A DNA stretch of 64,000 nt from NCBI GenBank assembly GCA_036274575.1, contig DASUFJ010000131.1, positions 4,262-68,261 of the forward strand, given 5' to 3'. The DNA is from Candidatus Limnocylindria bacterium. GTDB taxonomy: Bacteria; Chloroflexota; Limnocylindria; QHBO01. A program made the translations under genes and the position numbers. Below, in pieces: positions 7,360 to 18,733 of the stretch; positions within the stretch are counted from its first letter, which is position 1, and each line of letters opens with the position of its first letter. Below the pieces are notes generated by a model. The model saw nothing but the letters and a program-made list of their open reading frames with translations, did not search any database and was not told the DNA's origin.

Positions 7360-7382
7360 CTTCATCAGAGACGGACCGATGT

Positions 7383-7412
7383 GCCGCCCGCCTGACCGCG
7401 GGCGGCGTTTTC
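7383..7412 (+). terminator. Intrinsic terminator after the tRNA-Leu pair
   Basis: A 9-bp GC stem GCCGCCCGC/GCGGGCGGC with loop CTGACC, followed by GTTTTC. Confidence 0.75.
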
Positions 7413-7457
7413 GCATCCGGCCGTAACGGCCGATGGGCCGACTCGCTGGACCGCGGC

Positions 7458-7466
7458 TGATACCCT
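7458..7466 (+). promoter_or_regulatory. Candidate extended -10 TGATACCCT upstream of the AT3-ANL fusion gene
   Basis: A TGnTAnnnT pattern 16 nt before GTG 7483. The identical 9-mer recurs at 10565-10573 before tRNA-Val. Confidence 0.3.
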
Positions 7467-7482
7467 CGCGCACGAGGGCATC

Positions 7483-10400
7483 GTGGAGTCGTTCCGAGCG
7501 CGTTCCACCGCGACGACGCCATCCGCGCCATACGCGGGTGGAGGCGCCGAGCGCCTCATCTGGATCGACTGGCTGAAGGTCATCGTCGTCAGCGGCGTCT
7601 TCGTATTCCACGCCGCCGCGCCGTTCCTGATCATCGACTGGGTCGTCTCGAATGACGAGCGAAGCATGGGCCTGAGCGCGGTGGCTGGCTTCGGCTTCCT
7701 GTTCGGCATGCCGCTCATGTTTCTCCTGACCGGCGCCACCACATGGCTGTCGCTGGGACGGCGATCCCTGTCTGCCTACGGCCTCGTTCGCGTCCGCCGC
7801 CTGCTGCTGCCGCTGATCGCCGGCATCGCGATCCTCACGCCGCTGCAGTGGTGGCTGGCCGCTGCAATCGCGCGCGGGGGCGAGAACCCGCTGACCACGA
7901 TCGCGTGGTTCTTCGGCGGGATGCGCTTCGAGCCAACGTCCCGCTGGTTCGGTGACTACGGCCTGCATCTCTGGTTCATCGCATTCCTGTTGGCGTACTC
8001 CCTGCTCTGCCTCCCCCTCTTGGGCGTGCTGCGCCGTCCCGCCGGAGCACGCGCGCTCGACTGGCTTGCCGGTCTGCCCACCGCGGCGCTGCTGCTTGTC
8101 CTGTTCGTCCCGATGCTCGTCAGCCAGTGGCTGCTCCGGATCCCTTCGCCGCAATACCGGGACTGGGCCGACTTCGTGCTGTGGCTGGGCTTCTTCGCGG
8201 CTGGTGTGTTCCTGCTCGCCGATCGGCGGCTGCTCGACGCCGTCGTCCGCAGCGGGCCGCGCCTCATGCTGATCGGGATCGCGCTCGTTGTCGTGGGACT
8301 GATCGGCCACGGCCTGGCAGTCTCGTCGGGACTCATCCCGGGCGATCTGTGGAGCGGGGTCATCCGCCTCGAGAGCGCACCGGCGCTGGACGCGCCGACC
8401 GTTGCCTACATCACGCTCCGCACGGCAGCCTGTGCCGCGCTCACCGCCGGATGTCTCTGGATCGGAGTCCACCGCTTCCGGTCGCATCCGTCATGGCTGC
8501 CACGAGCCAGTCGAGCCATCCTGCCGTTCTACGTGCTCCACCATCCGGTTGTCGTGGCGGTGGCAGCACTCGTGGTGCAGTGGCCAGCGGGGCCGTGGAC
8601 GAAGCTCGTCGTCGTCCTGGTCGCCGCACTGGCCGGAAGCGTGATGCTGACGGCGCTCGTGATGCGCAGCTCCGTCGGGCGCTCTGTGTTCGGGATTCCA
8701 CCGGAGCCGGAGGAGCTCAGCCGTTACGGAGCAACGCCAGCATCGACGGCACAATCCGACCCCTTCGCGGTCCACATCGGGGAGCCGCTGAGCCTGGACG
8801 CGGCCGATCGACACACCAGCGTCGTCGGTGCTCTGGAGCAGACCGTGCGCCGGCTGCCGGATGCGGAGGCAATCCGGTGGAAGGAGGCGGGCAGCTGGCG
8901 CCGGATGAGTTACTCCCAGCTCTGGAGCCGCATTCGCGCCGCTTCGCTCGGCCTGCAGCTTCGCGGCATCGGCCACGGCGAGCACGTGGTGATCGTCAGC
9001 CGTTCGCGGCCTGAGTGGGTTGTGGCCGACTTTGCCGCCCTCGCCCTCGGGGCGGTGGTCTGCCCGATTGACCCTGGCGAATCCGATGCACGCATCGAGC
9101 AGGTCGTCCGTGGCCTCCGTCCGCGGCTGACATTCGTCGAGGACGAACGGCAACTGATGCGCCTGGGCGACATCGCGCCGACGGTCATTCTCGGCGGCGT
9201 CGCCCAGCCGAGAAGCCACCTGGTGACGCTTCACGACCTCGAGCGACTCGGCGGCGGGCTTGGGACATCGATGAGCGAGAGATGGGAGGCCGCCGTCGAC
9301 CGGCTGGACCGGTCCCAGGCGGCGACGATCGTTCAGACGATCGACGATGCCGGCACCTCACGCGGCGCAATCCTCACTCACGGCAACGTCCTCCACAACG
9401 TCGAGGCGGCACGCCGCGAGCTCGCGCTTCGGCCCGGCGACGTTGCGCTCTCCATCCTCCCACTGAGCCACATGTTCGAGCGTGCCGCGCAGCTCGTCGC
9501 CTTCACGAACGGCGCGACGATCGCGTTCGCCGAGCCCCGCATCGACAGGTGGTCCGACAACATGCGCGAGGTCCGCCCCCATGCCATGGCCGTGGTGCCG
9601 CTGTTCCTGACCCATCTCGTGGAGGGCATGCGCCGCGGCTCGGTCGGCCGGCCGGGCCAGATCGGTCGGCTGGCGCGCTGGAGCATCGCCACCGGGGCGT
9701 CGGTCAGGGGACAGTCCGGACGCGCCGGTCGCCGGCGGTCATGGTTGCGATTCGCGCTCGCGGACCTGCTGGTCCTGAGATCGCTGCGCGCGGCCACCGG
9801 GGGCCGGCTTCGCTACGTGTGCTGCGGCGGCGCGCCACTCCCGGTCGATGTCGCCGAATTTCTGTCGGCCGCCGGGATCCCCATCATCGAGGGTTACGGG
9901 ATGACCGAAGCATCGCCGCTACTCGCCATGAACCGCCTCGGCCGTCAGAGGCTCGGCACGGTCGGACCGCCGGTCGCCGGCACGGAGCTCCGCATCGATC
10001 ACCAGACAGGGGAGATCCTGGCTCGTGGGCCGCAGGTGATGCGGGGGTACCACGATCTTCCGCGCCAGACCGGCGCCGCGCTGCTTCCCGACGGCTGGTT
10101 GCGCACCGGCGATCTCGGGGCGTGGGATGCCGATGGAAACCTGCAGATCACTGGCGTTCGCAAGGACCTGCTCGTGCTTGCCAGCGGCAAGAAGGTCAGT
10201 CCACGTCCCATCGAGCTCGAGCTGGAGTCGTCAGAGCTCATCGCCCGGGCGGCCATCGTCGACCTCGGCGCCGAGGGGATTGGAGTCCTCCTCTGGCCGG
10301 AAGGGGACATCGTCCGATCGCGCGCCGCCATCGACGGGGCAGACGTCCAGGATCCGCTGATCGCCGAGGTGAGGCGGCAGCTTGGCACGCGGGCGTCGTA

Positions 10401-10605
10401 CGAGCGGCCCCGGCGGCTCGGCATCCTGCCGCGCGACCTCACCGCGGAGGCCGGAGAGCTCGACTCCGCCGGCCGGCCCGTCCGCGCCTCCGTCGTCGCG
10501 CACTGGGCATCCGTCGCCACCATTCCGCTCACGTGGCGCTCGCGAGAGCTTGCGCGGGTCCCCGTGATACCCTCCCGCGTCGGGGCGGTTAGCTCAGCTG
10601 GTTAG
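7483..10605 (+). CDS. Fusion protein: N-terminal membrane acyltransferase (acyltransferase-3/OpgC-like) plus C-terminal AMP-dependent synthetase/ligase (long-chain acyl-CoA synthetase-like)
   Basis: The N-terminal ~390 aa is polytopic and starts [24 protein letters not shown] (AT3 signature). The C-terminal ~640 aa carries GYGMTEASP and [36 protein letters not shown] (ANL core motifs). It is a single uninterrupted ORF. Confidence 0.75.
   Translation: [1040 protein letters not shown]
10565..10573 (+). promoter_or_regulatory. Candidate extended -10 TGATACCCT upstream of tRNA-Val (inside the 3' end of the fusion CDS)
   Basis: Same 9-mer as at 7458-7466. It ends 9 nt before the tRNA-Val 5' end. 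Confidence 0.3.
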
Positions 10606-10813: not shown

Positions 10814-11149
10814 ATGCTCTTCGACGAGGTCCCTTCCGTAGAGATTGAGTTCCGCGGCGAGCTCATTCACTGGCGAGGTCCGTCGCCCTATCACTTCGTG
10901 GATATCCCGGAGGATGCGTGCCACGAGATCGAGGGCATCGCGCCCCTGGTCAGCTACGGCTGGGGCGTCGTGCCCGTCGGCGCACGCATCGGCGAGACCG
11001 AGTGGAGCACGTCACTGTTTCCCCGCGAGGGCCGCTATCTGCTGCCGGTGCGCGACAGCGTCCGCCACGCGGAGGCGCTCGAGCTTGGCGACGTGGTGAG
11101 CGTTCGCCTCGTGATTCAGCTCGAGCGGCCGCTCGGAGCCGCTGGTTGA
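10814..11149 (+). CDS. DUF1905 (YdeI/OmpD-associated) domain protein
   Basis: A 111-aa ORF whose pattern EIEFRGELIHWRGPSPYHFVDIP...YGWGVVPVGARIGETEWSTSLFP...YLLPV matches my recollection of DUF1905. Confidence 0.55.
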   Translation: MLFDEVPSVEIEFRGELIHWRGPSPYHFVDIPEDACHEIEGIAPLVSYGWGVVPVGARIGETEWSTSLFPREGRYLLPVRDSVRHAEALELGDVVSVRLVIQLERPLGAAG

Positions 11150-11794: not shown

Positions 11795-12772
11795 ATGAGC
11801 TCGGAGACGCGCCGGGCGCCGACGACCTTCTACCGGGAGATCGACCGCAACCGCCGCAGGAGCTGGCTGCTCATCGCGGTCGTCATCCTCGTGCTCGGGT
11901 CGCTGGGCGGGGCCATCGGCTACGCCACCGGATTCGGCTGGTGGGGGGTCGTCTTCGCCGTGGCCCTCGCATCGGCCATGAGCGTCGGTTCGTACTTCGC
12001 CGGCGACTCGCTGGTCATGGCCACGAGCGGCGCGCGCGAGCTGGACGCGGCCGCTCCACCGGAGCGCTACAAGCAGTTCCTCAACGTGGTGGAGGAGATG
12101 CGCCTCGCCGGCGGTCTGCCGCGGCCGCGGATCTGGATCATCGACGACTCGGCGCCCAACGCCTTCGCCACCGGTCGCGATCCGCAGCACGCGAGCGTCG
12201 CCGCCACGACGGGGCTCATCGACAAGCTCGACCGCGAGGAGCTCCAGGGCGTCATCGGCCACGAGATGAGCCACATCGGCAACCTCGACATCCGCTTCGC
12301 GCTCCTCGTCGGCGTGCTCGTCGGGAGCATCGCGCTGCTGGCTGACTGGTTCCTGCGCTTCACCTTCTGGGGTGGCGCGCGTCGCAGCCGGAGTGACTCC
12401 GATCGGGGTGGTGGTGGCATCCAGGCCGTGATCTTCATCGTCGCCATCATCCTCGCCATCCTCGCCCCGCTCATCGGACGCATGATCCAGGCGGCCGTGA
12501 GTCGCAGCCGCGAGTCGCTTGCCGATGCGAGCGCCGTCGAGCTCACCCGCAACCCGCTGGGCCTGGCCCGGGCGCTGCGCGCGATTTCCGACGACCAGGA
12601 GGTGCTCGAGGTCGCGAACCGCGCGACACAGCACCTCTACATCGTCAACCCGATCAAGAGCTTCGAGGAGCGCTCGAAGTCGTTGTGGGACACCCATCCG
12701 CCGATCGGCGAGCGGATCCGCGCGCTCGAGAACATCGCCGGCCAGATGGGCGCGACCGCGGCCACTCGTTGA
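11795..12772 (+). CDS. htpX: M48-family zinc metalloprotease (HtpX-like)
   Basis: HEMSHIGNLD (HExxH), TM segments, and the common lemA-M48 pairing. Confidence 0.85.
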   Translation: MSSETRRAPTTFYREIDRNRRRSWLLIAVVILVLGSLGGAIGYATGFGWWGVVFAVALASAMSVGSYFAGDSLVMATSGARELDAAAPPERYKQFLNVVEEMRLAGGLPRPRIWIIDDSAPNAFATGRDPQHASVAATTGLIDKLDREELQGVIGHEMSHIGNLDIRFALLVGVLVGSIALLADWFLRFTFWGGARRSRSDSDRGGGGIQAVIFIVAIILAILAPLIGRMIQAAVSRSRESLADASAVELTRNPLGLARALRAISDDQEVLEVANRATQHLYIVNPIKSFEERSKSLWDTHPPIGERIRALENIAGQMGATAATR

Positions 12773-12774
12773 CG

Positions 12775-13257
12775 ATGAAGATCGTCGCATCGGGCGACGT
12801 CGACCCGGAGCGCCTGCACGAGCATCTTCTGAGCGTCTGGCACGCCGACTTCGTCGTGGCGCACGATGAGCCGATGCGTCCCGCCGATCTGCCCGGCTTC
12901 GTCGCTCTCGACGACGACGTCATCGTGGGTCACGCCGCGTACCGCATTTCGGACGATGGCTGCGAGCTCGTCGCCATCGCGGCCGAGCCGCCACGCAAGG
13001 GAACGGGATCGGCGCTGCTCGAGCGCGTGGTCGGGGAGGCGCGCGCCGCGGGCTGCGAGCGGGTGTGGCTGACGACGACGAACGACAACGTCGACGCACT
13101 GCGCTTCTACCAGCGGCGCGGCTTCCGGCTTGTCACGCTCAGGGTGGGCTCGGTCGTCGAGGCGCGCAAACGCTGGAAGCCCGACCTGCCGGCGACCGGC
13201 TCGTACGGCATCCCGATGCGCGACGAGCTCGACCTGGAGCTTTCACTGGGCAGCTGA
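12775..13257 (+). CDS. GNAT-family N-acetyltransferase
   Basis: Starts at MKIVASGD. The acetyl-CoA loop RKGTGSALLERVV and NDNVDALRFYQRRGF are present. The listed ORF 12685..13257 is a 5' extension overlapping htpX. Confidence 0.75.
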   Translation: MKIVASGDVDPERLHEHLLSVWHADFVVAHDEPMRPADLPGFVALDDDVIVGHAAYRISDDGCELVAIAAEPPRKGTGSALLERVVGEARAAGCERVWLTTTNDNVDALRFYQRRGFRLVTLRVGSVVEARKRWKPDLPATGSYGIPMRDELDLELSLGS

Positions 13258-13357: not shown

Positions 13358-13433
13358 GCCGAGGTAGCTCAGTTGGTAGAGCACGGGACTGAAAATCCCG
13401 GTGTCGCCAGTTCGATCCTGGCCCTCGGCACCA
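13358..13433 (+). tRNA. tRNA-Phe (anticodon GAA)
   Basis: Acceptor GCCGAGG/CCTCGGC, anticodon stem CGGGA/TCCCG with loop CTGAAAA, T-arm GCCAG-TTCGATC-CTGGC, encoded CCA. Confidence 0.9.
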
Positions 13434-13464
13434 CGCACGCGGTATCATCGAAGGCGACGAGCGG

Positions 13465-13540
13465 GCGGAAGTGGCTCAGTTGGTAGAGCATCACCTTGCC
13501 AAGGTGAGGGTCGCGGGTTCGAGTCCCGTCTTCCGCTCCA
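13465..13540 (+). tRNA. tRNA-Gly (anticodon GCC)
   Basis: Acceptor GCGGAAG/CTTCCGC, anticodon stem TCACC/GGTGA with loop TTGCCAA, TTCGAGT T-loop, encoded CCA. A TATCAT hexamer lies at 13443-13448 upstream. Confidence 0.9.
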
Positions 13541-13596
13541 TTTTCTTGTCCGGCTGGCCTCGACCGATGCTGGCCTGCCACAATTGACGAGCCGGA

Positions 13597-13670
13597 TGCC
13601 CCGTCGTCTAGTGGTAGGACAGCGGACTTTGGATCCGTGAACCGAGGTTCGAATCCTCGCGGGGCAGCCA
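13597..13670 (+). tRNA. tRNA-Gln (anticodon TTG)
   Basis: Acceptor TGCCCCG/CGGGGCA (U1-A72), anticodon loop CTTTGGA, TTCGAAT T-loop, encoded CCA. Confidence 0.9.
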
Positions 13671-13683
13671 ATTGACGATGAGT

Positions 13684-13757
13684 GGCGACGTGCCCGAGTG
13701 GTTAGGGAGCGGTCTGCAAAACCGCGTACACGGGTTCGATTCCCGTCGTCGCCTCCA
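13684..13757 (+). tRNA. tRNA-Cys (anticodon GCA)
   Basis: Acceptor GGCGACG/CGTCGCC, anticodon stem GCGGT/ACCGC with loop CTGCAAA, T-arm ACGGG-TTCGATT-CCCGT, encoded CCA. Confidence 0.9.
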
Positions 13758-14751
13758 CCTTCTGAGCGTGAATCGCCGCGCCGTCGCCGCGGACATCACG
13801 ATTCTCACGTGCCGTCCGCTCTTTCATGATCGAAGCTTGTGCCTTGCAGTCGCCCAGCGGACGGCCGAGGCGATCGGGGGCCTCCGTGTATCGCTGCCGC
13901 GGACGATGACTTCGACCGCGTCCAGGAACTGCATGTCTGGGGACGCCGGTAGCTCGAACCCCGGAAGGCGAGGCTGCCCTCTGGCCCAGCTGAAGCTCGA
14001 CGGTCAGGAAAGAGTTGGCAGAGACGTTAGGTGCCCTGGCCGGAGGCTACTGGGCAGGAGCTCACCGGCCAGCGCACGCTAGTACCGAATGGTCCGACAT
14101 CTCTCGCCGTGGCGAGAGTCATCCGACTGGGCACGTGGCGCGTCTAAGCAACCGGCGTGCCACGCGGACTATCGGGTCTGCGACGCCCTGTGCCGTCGAC
14201 GGAGCTTGGCGATTGCGGCAGGGAGGGCCCGATAGGCCCGCGTGCGATCAACGACGAACGCCGCCAGCACGATAACGATGACCGGCGGCACGAGCATTTC
14301 CATGTGGATGGCCGTGCAATGGCCGTGCCATGAGCATGTTGTACCCCGACGGCAAGCCCGAGCACTCCCGCCGGGGTACGGGGCCGACACGTCCGCAAGG
14401 ACCATGCCCCGGCTGGCACGCACGCCTGCATTCGCGAGGGACGGGCAGGGGCAGCACTCGAGCTGTGGGGGCCAGGAACGGGAACGAAGGTGTCGAGAAG
14501 GTGCCGCGCTGCACCGAGTTTGCTTCCCGCCTTGACCTCGGCCTCGACCTCGGGCCGCACGGGGAGCACAATCCTCAGACATCTGGCTAGCGCCTCCGCC
14601 TCGGCCTTGACCGAGCCGTGCCCCGGAGCGTCGGTGGAAGGGGGTGATGCCTTGCGCCGCGTCGGACCGCGCACGCTGATGGTCATGCCCACCGGCTAGA
14701 GCCGATTCGCCCCACCGAGTGTGGACCTGCCAAGGTCCTAGGAGGCAGAAG

Positions 14752-15660
14752 GTGCCACCCCTTGAGGAATGGACAGTTGAGCGCCAGATCGCGGAGAACG
14801 AACTCACCGCCGGGAATACTTATGAGCTGAAGAACATGGAGGTAGACCGATACGTCATCTACGGTGAACGGGAGTACGGCATCAATCTCGTGTGGAGCCA
14901 GGACTCCAACCGGGACATGTTCTTCGCGCACGGCATCGGCGAATTGCAGGGCACGCCCGTCCTGTACGGCGAGCGCATCGCCATCGGCATCGCCGACGGA
15001 GGCTACCTTCGGTATCAGGTCCGAGACTACGGCATCAACCTCGGCTGGACGAACGACAGAGTGCTCGAGTGGGAGGTCCGTGGCGGAACCTCCGGTCAGC
15101 CCATCCCATTTGCGGCTAACCGGTTCAGCCTCTACAACCGCGTTGCCGGCGACTACGTCGTGTACTGCGAGCGGCCGTATGGCATCAACCTGCGGTGGTC
15201 TCGAGACTGCAGCCGGTTCGATGAACCGGCTCTGGCCGCCACCCTGCCGATGGGGTATCGCATTCCACTTGGCGGTGGCGGCACGGAGACCTCGTTCGGG
15301 ACGGTCGAATTCTCCGGCCAACGGACCTCACCCGCTGGCGGAGGCAATGGGGCCGAGATCTCGTTCACCCGAAGCGACCAATGGGAAGCACCGCCGGGCG
15401 CGGACTTCGGCTTGGCTACCGTAACTGTCGGGAACCTCGCGACTGGCACCTGGAGGGTGACGGCGCGCGCTGCGCTATGGGCCGCGTCGTGCGACGTGGA
15501 GTTGAATTCTGGAATCAACGCATCGGTGAATTTTGAGGAGCGGTCCAATGGCTGTGGACGCGGCTTCGAGTTCCCGCTCCTTCGTGACCGCGATCTCGTA
15601 GCCGTGCGTCGAGTCGAGCGTTTTGCCTCGGATAGAGCCGAGTCGGGCGCGGATCGCTGA
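14752..15660 (+). CDS. Hypothetical protein with three internal ~50-aa repeats (beta-trefoil-like periodicity) plus a beta-rich C-terminal domain
   Basis: GTG 14752 lies 6 nt after AGGAGG (14740-14745). The repeats are RYVIYGEREYGINLVWSQD, GYLRYQVRDYGINLGWTND and DYVVYCERPYGINLRWSRD. I recognise no family. Hand counts on two 60-nt lines give clearly lower GC (about 52-57%). Confidence 0.6.
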   Translation: MPPLEEWTVERQIAENELTAGNTYELKNMEVDRYVIYGEREYGINLVWSQDSNRDMFFAHGIGELQGTPVLYGERIAIGIADGGYLRYQVRDYGINLGWTNDRVLEWEVRGGTSGQPIPFAANRFSLYNRVAGDYVVYCERPYGINLRWSRDCSRFDEPALAATLPMGYRIPLGGGGTETSFGTVEFSGQRTSPAGGGNGAEISFTRSDQWEAPPGADFGLATVTVGNLATGTWRVTARAALWAASCDVELNSGINASVNFEERSNGCGRGFEFPLLRDRDLVAVRRVERFASDRAESGADR

Positions 15661-16009
15661 TGCGCTGGGAAGCGCGCCCAAAGAACTAACGAAGAGCGTT
15701 CGACCGGAGCCGCCGCGAAGCCCACGCGGGAATAGGGCGAGCCGCCTGCCCGGCAAGTAGTGCGCCCCTCGCCAGCGGGTGGGAAGGTGCGTCGGGATAG
15801 CGGCGGCTTCCGTACAGGTGATCCGGATTGCTACTCGGGCGGCCTAGGTGGGCACGACTTCGTCCGGGAATGGGATCGGGAGCATTCGGCTCCGTAGGCC
15901 GATGCGCGCCAGGCCTGAGGCTGACCGTGGCGAGGCCGAGCAGAGAACTCACCTTCGTCGAAGTTCGGTCACGTATGCTGGACCGACGACCGCTTGGACC
16001 CCGCGATTC

Positions 16010-17050
16010 ATGAACGCTGCCTTCCGTCGCGGCCTCCGCGTCTCAGTAAGCCTCGTCATCGTCTTCACGGGCACACTCCTCTCCCATCCGGGGAGCGCCG
16101 CCGGCGTCACGACGCTGGCCCCCAACCTGCGGATGCACCGCATCGAGCACATCACGATCCAGGTCGTCAACGGTCGTCGGCTGCTCCGATTCGACAGCCT
16201 CATGCCGAACGTCGGCGACGGTCCGTTCGAGATCGTCGGCAGCCGCGCGAACGCTGCATCGCCCATGAGGGTCAGCCAGTTCCTCTACAACAGCGCCGGC
16301 CAGAAGTACGCGTATCCGACGGGCGCGAGGCTCCAGTGGGCCGGCGACGGTCACAACCACTGGCATACGGTCAACGGCATCACGTACGAGGTCTACCCGA
16401 CCAGCGGCACGCTCACCGTTCGGCGCGGGGCGAAGATCGGGTTCTGCTTCGTCGACTCCAACGCGTACGCACTGGGGCTGGAGAACGCGCCGCGCTCACC
16501 GGTGTACACGAGTGGTTGCGGGAATTTCAGCGCGCTCCGGGTCCGCGAGGGGGTGAGCGTCGGGTGGGCCGACCTCTATCCGTGGAACTTCGCCTACCAG
16601 TGGATCGACATCACGGGATTGGCCGGTGGCACCTACCGGCTGCGCGCGACGGCCGACCAGCCGAACTACTTCTACGAGACGAACAGCCTCGACAACTGCG
16701 TGTACGCCACGATCGTCATCCCGTCGACGGGGTCGAACGTCCAGGTCCTCGGGCGCGGCGACACGTGCGGAAAAGCGTCGATTACGCCGGTCAGGACGTT
16801 CCCCGGTGGGACGGCAATCAACCCGTCACGCCGGGTGATCTTCACTCCCGGGACGTACGTCGGGTACCGCTTCAACTCCATCGGCACCACGCTCGTCACG
16901 AAGTCCATGACTCTGGCCACGAAGTCCGGGGCGAACACAAGCTACCGCGCCATCCCGTTCGGGCAGCCCTCGAACTGGCTGTACATCACGAATGGCGGCC
17001 TTGCCGGCTACTGGGTGAAGGACACCGCCTCGGTCAACTTCGCGCCGTAG
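16010..17050 (+). CDS. Secreted lysyl oxidase-like (LOX-family copper amine oxidase) protein with an extra C-terminal domain
   Basis: Signal-peptide-like start MNAAFRRGLRVSVSLVIVFTGTLLSHPGSAAG. GHNHWH resembles the LOX HxHxH copper site. AKIGFCFVDS resembles HKASFCLEDT. GVSVGWADLYPWNFAYQWIDITGLAGGTYRLRATADQPNYFYETNSLDNCVYA resembles human LOX [53 protein letters not shown] (recalled from memory). Confidence 0.75.
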   Translation: MNAAFRRGLRVSVSLVIVFTGTLLSHPGSAAGVTTLAPNLRMHRIEHITIQVVNGRRLLRFDSLMPNVGDGPFEIVGSRANAASPMRVSQFLYNSAGQKYAYPTGARLQWAGDGHNHWHTVNGITYEVYPTSGTLTVRRGAKIGFCFVDSNAYALGLENAPRSPVYTSGCGNFSALRVREGVSVGWADLYPWNFAYQWIDITGLAGGTYRLRATADQPNYFYETNSLDNCVYATIVIPSTGSNVQVLGRGDTCGKASITPVRTFPGGTAINPSRRVIFTPGTYVGYRFNSIGTTLVTKSMTLATKSGANTSYRAIPFGQPSNWLYITNGGLAGYWVKDTASVNFAP

Positions 17051-17062
17051 CTCCCTCGGCCG

Positions 17063-17287
17063 TCAGATTCGGTCCATGAGGCGAATGCGCATGAGCGCGC
17101 GGTTGCCGGCGGCCTGCGTCGCCTCGATGTCGCGCAGGCGAAGACGCTCGACCCCACGGCGCTTGATCATCTCGGCGTACTCGATCGTGGCAGCCAGCAG
17201 GGCAGCCATGGCCAGGAGACGAGCGAGCACCTGAATGTCGTCAGGCACGGACCGATGCTGCGCCCTTCCCCGTCGGCGCTGAATCAC
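17063..17287 (-). CDS. Hypothetical small helical protein (weak call)
   Basis: A 74-aa ORF convergent with the LOX-like gene. I recognise no motif, and the coding status is uncertain. Confidence 0.25.
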   Translation of the reverse strand: MIQRRRGRAQHRSVPDDIQVLARLLAMAALLAATIEYAEMIKRRGVERLRLRDIEATQAAGNRALMRIRLMDRI

Positions 17288-17333
17288 CCATTCGTCCCAT
17301 CCGCGCCGGTTCCTGGCGTACGCTGCACCCGTC

Positions 17334-17418
17334 GCCGGAGTGGCGGAATGGCAGACGCAGCCGGCTTAAACCCGGCGGCCCGCAAGGCGTGGGGGTTCGA
17401 ATCCCTCCTCCGGCACCA
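17334..17418 (+). tRNA. tRNA-Leu (anticodon TAA)
   Basis: Acceptor GCCGGAG/CTCCGGC, anticodon stem GCCGG/CCGGC with loop CTTAAAC, long variable arm, TTCGAAT T-loop, encoded CCA. Confidence 0.9.
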
Positions 17419-17420
17419 GC

Positions 17421-18653
17421 TCAGCGGCGGCTGAAGATCCTGCGCCGCTCCTGCTTCCCAGCCACGGTCGGCTGCTCGATGCCGATGACGACCTGCGCGA
17501 TGCGTCGCATCGCGGCCGTGGTGGGGGACTGCGGCCGCCCCACCACGAGCGGAACGCCCTCGTTCACCGACCGGATCATGTCGACCTCGGTGTAGGGAAT
17601 CTCCGCGGCCGGCTTCGCCCTCAGCAGGTTCTCGACGTCGCGTGTCTTCAGCAGCTCCTTGGGGAAGACGTGGTTGATGACGATGTGTGTCCGAGCCTTG
17701 AGCGGGGTCGTGTCGGCCAGGAACGCCATGAGCAGGCTCATCGAGCGCAGGGCGGCAATCTCCGGGAAGAGGATGAAGACGTGCGCGTCGGCCTGCTCCA
17801 GGAGCCAGAGGCTTCGCGGGTCGAGGCGGCTGCCGAGGTCGACCAGGATGTGGTCGAACGACGGGCGCACGATCTCGACGATGCGCTGGAGGTGCTCGAG
17901 GGTGACCCGGAAGTCGGCCTCCGGCCGGGTCGGGGCGGCGAGGACGACGAGGCCCGACGAGTGGGTGGTCAGGTACGACCGGGCCAGCTCGGGATCGGCG
18001 AGCGCCTGGTCGTCGGTCGCCAGGCCGGCGACGTCATAGCGCGGCGAGAGGTTGAGATGCGTCGCGACCTGGCCGAACTGAAGGTCGAGGTCGATGAGCA
18101 GCACGCGCGACGCTGGCAGTGCGCCATTGCCGCCGGGGACGCTGCCCGGGGCGGGGCGAGGGCCGCCGCCTCCCGCCAGCAGGACGGCGGTGTTGACCGC
18201 CAGCGTCGTGGTCCCGACGCCGCCCTTCGGGCTGAAGAAGGCGACGATCTCGGCGATCCCGGTGCTCGACGCATCTGGGCGCACCTTGCCGGCGCGAATG
18301 AGGATCGCCATGACCCGACCCTCGAGCTCGTTGTGCGCGAACCCACCGGCGATGACGTCGTCGGCGCCGGCCTCCAGGAACGCGATGCGCGCCTCGACAT
18401 CGTGGGCCGGCGCCACGACCAGGATCGGCGTGACGTGGCCCTCGGAGGCGGTGCGCAACGAGGCGATCGCACCGGACGCGGCGAGGCCCTCGGCGACGAT
18501 GAGGTCGACGGCCTTTCCGCGCATTGAGGCAACGGCGTCGGCCGGAGTGGTGACCGACGTGGTGCGGTGGCCGGCCTCGGCCAGGGCCGCCTCGAGCTCG
18601 GAGCGGAGCTCCTCGCCGCGGGCGCAGATCAGGATTGAGGTCGCAGGAGGCAT
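17421..18653 (-). CDS. CpaE/TadZ-like ATPase: N-terminal pseudo-receiver domain plus MinD/ParA-type P-loop domain
   Basis: Deviant Walker A FFSPKGGVGTTTLAVNTA. The N-terminal CheY-like fold (ILICARGEE...VDLIVAEG...PILVVAP...GADDVIAGG) lacks the acidic pair and the conserved Lys. I prefer the start at MPPATSILI (18653). The ORF-track start at 18719 is the alternative. Confidence 0.7.
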   Translation of the reverse strand: MPPATSILICARGEELRSELEAALAEAGHRTTSVTTPADAVASMRGKAVDLIVAEGLAASGAIASLRTASEGHVTPILVVAPAHDVEARIAFLEAGADDVIAGGFAHNELEGRVMAILIRAGKVRPDASSTGIAEIVAFFSPKGGVGTTTLAVNTAVLLAGGGGPRPAPGSVPGGNGALPASRVLLIDLDLQFGQVATHLNLSPRYDVAGLATDDQALADPELARSYLTTHSSGLVVLAAPTRPEADFRVTLEHLQRIVEIVRPSFDHILVDLGSRLDPRSLWLLEQADAHVFILFPEIAALRSMSLLMAFLADTTPLKARTHIVINHVFPKELLKTRDVENLLRAKPAAEIPYTEVDMIRSVNEGVPLVVGRPQSPTTAAMRRIAQVVIGIEQPTVAGKQERRRIFSRR

Positions 18654-18733
18654 CGGTATTGGCAGCAATCGTTGGAGGATGGTGGAACCGGGGGAGTATA
18701 CGGCCAGCGTTGGCGGCATCGGTTCATGAGGGC

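Follow-up and report, generated by a model that had tools for sequence, protein, structure and literature searches.

A variable interval between tRNA-Cys and tRNA-Leu(UAA) in a Limnocylindria genome, its likely origin in a tRNA-Cys integration hotspot, and a structured repeat found at the site

In Dehalococcoides (Chloroflexota), tandem ssrA-specific islands form high-plasticity regions through repeated site-specific integration, and many of these islands, which are devoid of an integration module, are read as cis-mobilizable or fixed remnants (McMurdie et al. 2011, PMC3146451). Integrative and cis-mobilizable elements that target tRNA genes and grow by accretion similarly integrate at the tRNA 3' end, duplicate their attachment (att) sites as attL and attR, accumulate in tandem, and decay to immobile remnants (PMC5704250; PMC3146451). 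Here we describe a 3,576-nt interval (positions 13758–17333) that separates the genes for tRNA-Cys and tRNA-Leu(UAA) in a 64,000-nt stretch of DNA (hereafter designated the window) from a metagenome-assembled genome (MAG) of Candidatus Limnocylindria (Chloroflexota). With a probability of about 0.72, we read this interval as the current filling of a lineage-wide tRNA-Cys integration hotspot, composed of leftover mobile-DNA cargo and forming no functional unit; we also describe a structured repeat of ~90 nt, the hotspot element (HE), one copy of which lies in the interval. Limnocylindria are abundant, uncultured Chloroflexota of soil and freshwater.

The Dehalococcoides ssrA island array is the closest described parallel to this site. 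In both cases, the islands lie downstream of a small stable-RNA gene, are bounded by that gene and by direct repeats of its 3' end, and carry integration genes on the reverse strand adjoining attL, and many of them have no integration module. The target here, however, is tRNA-Cys within a tRNA array and not ssrA; the integrase is of the tyrosine (Xer-like) type, whereas a CcrB-type serine recombinase acts there; the fillings here are small (0.3–9 kb), that of the window having apparently lost both integrase and repeat; and no counterpart has been described for the HE or for the arrays in which riboswitches, open reading frames (ORFs), and HE copies follow one another. Unlike the tRNA-targeted integrative elements, the window showed no transfer or mobilisation genes. 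The mechanism would be of a known kind, that is, a tRNA-targeted integration hotspot with a decayed remnant, and what is new is the HE with its riboswitch-bearing ORF arrays.

Occupancy of the site between tRNA-Cys and tRNA-Leu(UAA)

Using the neighbouring HtpX-type protease as a probe, we gathered 80 loci from other Limnocylindria species, in 46–78 of which parts of a common frame, LemA-HtpX-tRNAs ... tRNA-Leu(taa)-ATPase-S6, were conserved. LemA-HtpX was found in 78 related loci, the tRNA order was kept in nearly all of the 60 loci scanned, and a receiver-domain/MinD-type ATPase gene followed by the S6 gene was located 5–290 nt past tRNA-Leu(taa) in 46. The gap between tRNA-Cys and tRNA-Leu(UAA) within this frame is hypervariable: among the 48 species whose loci contain both tRNAs, it measures 6–22 nt in 9 (empty sites) and 343–9,122 nt in 39 (filled sites), while several more loci have a gap of more than 9 kb and four contigs stop 0–9 nt past tRNA-Cys. 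None of the 39 filled sites has the genes or DNA of the window, and the variable presence of this islet, anticipated in a preliminary description of the window made from its sequence alone, is borne out by these comparisons. Moreover, 72 of 132 ORFs compared (129 from fillings and 3 from the window) were singletons. The fillings encode CWB2 cell-wall-binding proteins, adenylate-cyclase/STAND regulators, glyoxalases, RibD_C proteins, and nitronate monooxygenase, as well as an AcrB pump, a DNA methylase, a LuxR regulator, and an HtrA protease. The commonest occupant is a protein of 830–885 aa with three CWB2 repeats and a C5-epimerase-like domain, encoded on the minus strand of the Cys-Leu gap in eight loci (L010, L020, L029, L033, L038, L050, L055, and L072). 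As a separate observation, two loci have insertions between tRNA-Gln and tRNA-Cys (L047, 12196–17247, 5 kb; L030, 11562–14498, 2.9 kb), and therefore other junctions of the tRNA array can also be targeted.

Signatures of site-specific integration were abundant at the same site in the relatives. Intact tyrosine integrase genes stand directly after tRNA-Cys in four loci (L070, L036, L046, and L019), and integrase fragments lie beside it in seven or eight more, among them L071, L063, L023, L073, L052, L041, and L025. By a profile search, second, partial copies of the tRNA-Cys 3' half were detected downstream in seven species (L066, L008, L087, L073, L011, L034, and L010), where they delimit segments of ~1.2–4.4 kb; such copies are also present in five of the HE-bearing metagenome contigs described below. 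Furthermore, the 15–17 nt after tRNA-Cys conform to a consensus, TCTGAGCACGAATC, with at most 3 mismatches in 22 of 55 filled loci and in none of the 9 empty sites, and the same consensus follows the duplicated partial tRNA-Cys copies. Because it occurs in filled loci and after tRNA copies and is absent from all 9 empty sites, the motif is regarded as an element-derived, attL-type junction. The interval in the window, which starts 1 nt past tRNA-Cys, carries this junction motif in the form TTCTGAGCGTGAATC.

From these comparisons, the following history may be proposed. The ancestral state in Limnocylindria would have been a five-tRNA array, Phe-Gly-Gln-Cys-Leu(UAA), and mobile elements with a tyrosine recombinase would insert within tRNA-Cys, in its 3' half. 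Every such event would restore tRNA-Cys, leaving the element junction beside the tRNA gene and, at the other end, an incomplete second copy of tRNA-Cys, and repeated integration followed by deletion would produce a different mosaic in each species. In the present genome, loss of the integrase and of the distal tRNA copy would have left the segment fixed, so that what remains would be the junction motif, ~1 kb of decayed DNA, a beta-trefoil gene with one HE, an oxidase gene, and a doubtful small ORF, the repeat protein and the oxidase being independent cargo.

The composition of the interval is atypical, as the preliminary description had expected from G+C counts made by hand. The interval has 65.7% G+C against 70.8% elsewhere in the window (a value this low is reached by only 1.5% of windows of equal length), and its tetranucleotide deviation (z = 3.8) falls in the top 0.8% of windows. 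At positions 14761–14880, where 52–57% had been counted, the measured value is 54.2%, and the 120-nt windows poorest in G+C in the whole 64 kb lie within this stretch. By segment, G+C amounts to 67% in the spacer that follows tRNA-Cys, 63% in the repeat-protein gene, and 66% in the oxidase gene; at third codon positions (GC3), it is 0.75 in the repeat-protein gene and a host-like 0.90 in the oxidase gene, the typical range of the window being 0.85–0.95. The four-tRNA array (Phe-Gly-Gln-Cys), the tRNA-Leu(UAA), and the ~3.6 kb between them were recovered with ARAGORN and Rfam as previously reported. Independent short assemblies from two samples confirm the order tRNA-Cys, spacer, repeat-protein gene, HE and the order HE, oxidase, tRNA-Leu. 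These short contigs break inside tRNA-Cys, the HE, and tRNA-Leu, as expected because these are repeated sequences.

The spacer (13758–14751) was confirmed as ~1 kb without a convincing ORF: only poor codon-position G+C patterns were seen there, none of the coding type, along with a weak, frame-shifting minus-strand signal. This signal had prompted consideration of a decayed integrase or other pseudogene, a candidate rejected after the searches. With tblastn, the full protein complement of 60 related fillings, the integrases among it, gave nothing in the spacer; three minus-strand frames, the frames searched in this way, had no homologue among 5.8 billion proteins; and tblastx and blastn detected no similarity to 87 related loci or to the HE-bearing contigs. 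Nor was any Rfam covariance-model match obtained at E ≤ 1 in 13650–17450. The spacer is probably decayed element DNA.

Several observations weigh against the reading of the interval as a product of site-specific integration. The interval contains neither an integrase nor a fragment of one, as judged by Pfam, by tblastn with the proteins of related fillings, and in the minus-strand spacer frames; and no second tRNA-Cys copy (attR) was found in the islet by seed repeats, fuzzy matches, or an nhmmer profile, so that the direct repeat of the tRNA-Cys 3' half looked for near 17.3 kb exists neither there nor elsewhere in the islet. It is from this double absence that we read the filling as a fixed remnant. 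Arrival by site-specific integration would accordingly have to be argued from a 15-nt junction motif, one HE copy, and the relatives. In addition, the loci compared come from other species; the join across the HE is known from the MAG contig alone, as the short contigs overlap by 28 nt within the HE; and the oxidase gene, with its host-like GC3, could have arrived by intragenomic rearrangement and not with a mobile element. Alternatively, the filling would be ordinary fast-evolving intergenic or accessory DNA, to which deletion and illegitimate recombination gave its form and site-specific integration contributed nothing. Such an origin would agree with the missing integrase and att repeat and with the variation of other gaps in the region (Leu(gag)-Val and HtpX-tRNA-Phe), but it is quite improbable given that the window has an element-type junction motif that occurs in no empty site, that the HE is restricted to the hotspot, and that integrases and att copies abound at exactly this site in relatives.

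The hotspot element and its arrays

Seven full copies of the HE yielded a three-helix consensus with compensatory changes, from which a covariance model, R1, was made. With R1, the copy in the window scores 60.5 bits (E = 4e-10); it has an insertion of ~30 nt and is placed in the 349-nt gap between the repeat-protein and oxidase genes. In a motif search of related loci, 9 of 10 core matches and all 19 matches to three sub-motifs fell in tRNA-Cys-downstream intervals, which constitute 12% of the 1.4 Mb examined, and the 11 matches that R1 gave in 1.36 Mb of related loci were all in such intervals. A pattern scan of metagenome contigs provided 55 further HE-bearing contigs (L095–L149), in which R1 finds 93 copies, and wherever tRNAs are visible on these contigs, the HE is always between tRNA-Cys and tRNA-Leu(taa). 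No HE was found in viral contigs, and no Rfam family matches it, the Rfam matches in HE-bearing contigs being neighbouring aptamers of c-di-GMP-II variants. The HE is thus a previously undescribed structured repeat, confined to the hotspot wherever its context is visible.

In the 93 copies, whose alignment was fitted to R1 and in that respect favours the structure, 90.6% of cells are paired, as compared with 30–55% in slid controls, and 116 cells are compensatory versus 33 in shuffles, a count reached by none of 500 shuffles. The folding energies of single copies were no better than those of shuffled sequences (z = -1.6 to +1.2), and because they are unremarkable, the support for the structure is that given by covariation.

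HE copies form arrays of ORF-HE units in the same orientation in the metagenome contigs and in L014 (11742–15687); the window has a single unit. The spacing in the arrays is 285–1,958 nt (median ~650 nt), with one outlier of 8.1 kb. The stop codon of the plus-strand ORF mostly precedes the HE by 7–109 nt (41 nt in the window), and two ORFs overlap it. The ORFs themselves are diverse, 38 of them falling into 30 unrelated clusters; of 10 representative cluster ORFs scanned, 7 had no Pfam family, and many ORFs start with a signal-like sequence by inspection of their translations. Often, a promoter-like TTGAC...TAnnAT is seen 26–74 nt after the HE, followed by a c-di-GMP-II-GAG or -GCG variant aptamer. 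We counted 16 of these aptamers (RF03169 and RF03170) above the gathering threshold, located upstream of small, mostly secreted ORFs; the window contains none. To our knowledge, the ligands of the two variants have not been established. The arrays are also punctuated by integrase fragments and by partial copies of tRNA-Cys, and in two contigs (L097 and L134) integrase fragments lie 79–262 nt from an HE in divergent orientation. Moreover, in two independent comparisons, the unit held in common ended 6–7 nt before the HE 3' end, with unrelated DNA beyond.

These arrays resemble integron cassettes with attC sites in their combination of a same-orientation ORF and an imperfect palindrome, in their cassette-like sizes, in their diverse small ORFs, and in having a boundary at the palindrome's 3' end. 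The repeat-protein gene and its HE might, by this likeness, be an integron-like cassette in which the HE takes the role of attC, such cassettes having been captured one by one after tRNA-Cys with an older oxidase segment behind. The array organization, the short distance from ORF stop to HE (also in the window), the variety of ORFs mostly without a Pfam family, the common boundary of units, the palindrome maintained by compensatory changes, and the nearby integrase fragments all speak for it. However, the HE consensus, which ends GGAGCCGCCGC ... GCGGCGGCTTCC(GTATGC), has no AAC/GTT boxes (RYYYAAC ... GTTRRRY), and the four integrases at tRNA-Cys score 24–45 bits with TIGR02249 against the integron-integrase cut-off of 265. 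A canonical attC was therefore rejected for want of R''/R' boxes, and an IntI-type assignment of the integrases for their low scores. Furthermore, loci with intact integrases have no HE, the homologues of the window repeat protein elsewhere are without an HE (R1 and blastn), and HE arrays, unlike integron cassettes, are anchored at a tRNA gene and have units with their own promoter-like sequences and riboswitches, so that the HE could instead be a conserved 3' RNA element. An integron-like cassette in the window is, on this evidence, unlikely.

Besides a recombination site, the HE could represent one arm of the att site of the elements, a 3' RNA element that has been conserved, or a small repeat with mobility of its own. 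One tentative and still doubtful proposal combines the first of these with a capture system distinct from integrons, in which the HE would be the recombination site and self-contained units made of a promoter, an orphan c-di-GMP-II-GAG/GCG riboswitch, a small secreted-protein gene, and an HE would be introduced after tRNA-Cys and shuffled by Xer-like tyrosine recombinases; positions 14752–15816 of the window would then be one cassette.

Repeat protein and lysyl oxidase

The repeat-protein gene starts with GTG, six bases downstream of AGGAGG, and its product is 100% identical to P0121, a 'hypothetical protein' of a Candidatus Limnocylindria MAG. The earlier call of a triple-repeat protein was upheld: DNA repeats are spaced 150–153 nt apart, and the N-terminal domain (residues 1–155) has three YGINLxW repeats. 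No Pfam, NCBIfam, or PHROG match was obtained, and the protein is not assignable by sequence to the trefoil families (MIR, Ricin_B, and others). An AlphaFold2 model with a predicted local distance difference test (pLDDT) value of 88 (91 for the N-terminal domain) shows three repeats that together contribute twelve strands and, after them, a beta-sandwich with two conserved cysteines. In a Foldseek search with the N-terminal domain alone, the leading matches were all beta-trefoils of MIR or lectin type, with template modelling (TM) scores of 0.5–0.68 and weak E-values (0.05–0.3), while the two-domain model gave insignificant matches alone. As in the MIR and ricin-B beta-trefoils (3MAL, SDF2-like; 9E7A, Pmt4 MIR domain; 4I4O, BEL lectin), three repeats of ~50 aa make up the predicted twelve strands, but the repeat signature is YGINLxW and not QxW, there is no sequence match, and the beta-sandwich with its cysteines is fused to the trefoil. 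The protein is, according to the model, a beta-trefoil plus beta-sandwich protein from an uncharacterised family, for which an exhaustive profile search over 1.84 billion representatives gave ~700 clusters. The subfamily to which it belongs starts MPPLEEW and lacks a signal sequence at the N-terminus; signal peptides do occur in distant members of the family. A homologue with 68% identity (L006, 1681–4584; L007) adjoins genes for an excisionase-like HTH_17 protein, DUF6009, and an NrS1-1-type primase/AAA_25 helicase, a setting characteristic of small elements of the integrative or plasmid-like type. Around homologues of the islet genes, the flanking DNA did not match that of the window, and a shared synteny was rejected.

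The second gene encodes a lysyl oxidase (LOX) family protein (PF01186, E = 6.7e-13, 49.2 bits, cut-off 20.4), as the preliminary description had proposed, with 100% identity to P0001, 'lysyl oxidase family protein'. A His-x-His-x-His motif is kept, HNHWH aligning with HRHYH of human LOXL2 (5ZE3), and the K of GAKIGFCFVD and the Y of ADLYPW (ADLY...QWIDIT) align with GHKASFCLED and DMYRHD of LOXL2. We take these residues to be the copper-binding His triad and the Lys/Tyr pair forming lysine tyrosylquinone (LTQ), from the established roles in LOX and LOXL2. The N-terminus, MNAAFRRGLRVSVSLVIVFTGTLLSHPGSAAG, resembles a signal peptide by inspection, and the protein is probably a secreted, copper-dependent oxidase with an intact predicted active site. 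Most likely, the predicted enzyme would act on lysines of envelope or extracellular proteins, oxidising their side chains to cross-linking aldehydes. In its single LOX domain, His triad, and Lys/Tyr pair, it is like the known prokaryotic lysyl oxidases (PF01186; PMC4448552), including the enzyme of Haloterrigena turkmenica (PMC6452851), most of which are likewise simply built, with an N-terminus that resembles a signal sequence (Grau-Bove et al. 2015, PMC4448552). It differs from them in that a further ~80 aa at the C-terminus form a domain of unknown family, which is common to CWB2 proteins; this domain is 30–40% identical to that of the ~850-aa CWB2 proteins that occupy the same Cys-Leu gap in about nine species. 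Pfam at E ≤ 1 gave nothing for the C-terminal domains of either the repeat protein or the oxidase. Homologues of the oxidase number 590 at E ≤ 0.001 in a public collection, and among the 120 matches listed, some are fused to SLH domains and a few are named as Limnocylindria. The closest relatives (54–59% identity) reside in a conserved neighbourhood, EamA - amino-acid kinase - oxidase - glucose/sorbosone dehydrogenase.

The preliminary description had suggested that the two genes form a horizontally acquired extracellular cross-linking module; in one form of this idea, a lectin-like protein would be the substrate or targeting partner of the oxidase. Their adjacency on the same strand, the frequent carbohydrate binding of beta-trefoils, the predicted secretion and activity of the oxidase, and the fusion of some oxidase homologues to SLH cell-surface domains are in keeping with this idea. 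Nevertheless, none of 5 repeat-protein loci has the oxidase and none of ~8 oxidase loci has the repeat protein; in the window, the genes are separated by the gap of 349 nt with the HE inside and differ in GC3, and the repeat protein belongs to the subfamily without a signal sequence. As the two genes never co-occur elsewhere, the module was rejected, and we consider it highly improbable. The broader claim of horizontal acquisition was sustained in part: the atypical composition and variable presence favour it, whereas the host-like codon usage of the oxidase gene and the position of its relatives in another conserved neighbourhood do not.

Surroundings of the interval and significance

The features of the interval and its borders are compiled in Table 1. 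The weak antisense ORF that closes the interval does exist and is predicted by the gene caller on two short independent contigs, but it has no significant family match (Pfam, NCBIfam, and PHROG) and no relative in any locus compared. Almost all confidently coding ORFs of the window are on the plus strand, this doubtful ORF and the ATPase gene beyond tRNA-Leu being among the exceptions.

Table 1 Positions of features in and around the interval (window coordinates) and of c-di-GMP-II-variant aptamers in HE-bearing contigs (contig coordinates)
Feature	Positions	Strand	Remarks
tRNA-Phe(gaa), tRNA-Gly(gcc), tRNA-Gln(ttg)	13358..13670	+	conserved left anchor; ARAGORN, Rfam
tRNA-Cys(gca)	13684..13757	+	putative integration target, attB / left junction; ARAGORN, Rfam
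Junction motif, element-type	13760..13774	+	after tRNA-Cys; consensus match
Spacer of ~1 kb without recognisable gene or RNA	13775..14751	.	probably decayed element DNA
302-aa repeat protein gene	14752..15660	+	predicted beta-trefoil + beta-sandwich; uncharacterised family
HE, structured ~90-nt repeat, three helices	15701..15816	+	covariance model R1
346-aa lysyl oxidase family gene	16010..17050	+	PF01186
74-aa antisense ORF, doubtful gene	17063..17287	-	no homologue; GC3 0.79
tRNA-Leu(taa)	17334..17418	+	conserved right anchor
Receiver-domain + MinD/ParA-type ATPase gene	17421..18719	-	conserved right flank; Pfam, NCBIfam
c-di-GMP-II-variant aptamers, L115	1023-1111, 2387-2478, 3255-3343		
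c-di-GMP-II-variant aptamers, other contigs	L118 1438-1525; L135 813-907; L130 129-216; L143 9137-9226; others		

The flanks had been described as conserved core throughout, with the interval as the only accessory block of the window; this does not hold. The 3.2 kb from tRNA-Leu(gag) to tRNA-Val (7360–10582) contain a 1040-aa Acyl_transf_3 + AMP-binding fusion gene, which is present in 2 of 64 relatives (L064 and L041), the same gap measuring 24–353 nt in 57 of the 64; it thus constitutes a second variable insertion of the window. A DUF1905 gene (10814–11149) and a GNAT acetyltransferase gene (12685–13257), both adjoining the tRNA arrays, are also variably present, being found in 6 and 5 related loci, respectively, as compared with 78 for the neighbouring LemA.

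We know of almost no studies on the mobile DNA of Limnocylindria. The site provides a precisely bounded, lineage-wide hotspot, the conserved anchors of which could serve for amplifying accessory genes or for mining them from metagenomes. The repeat protein founds an uncharacterised family of predicted beta-trefoils. Judging from its conserved residues, the oxidase is probably an active bacterial lysyl oxidase in a phylum outside the five bacterial LOX clades given in 2015, among which Chloroflexota do not appear (Grau-Bove et al., PMC4448552). The HE arrays with c-di-GMP-II variants offer a genomic context for finding what these orphan riboswitches sense, and they are a candidate new cassette system. 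If the capture of cassettes through the HE should prove true, the hotspot would provide Limnocylindria, across the lineage, with a platform downstream of tRNA-Cys for exchanging envelope or secreted proteins.

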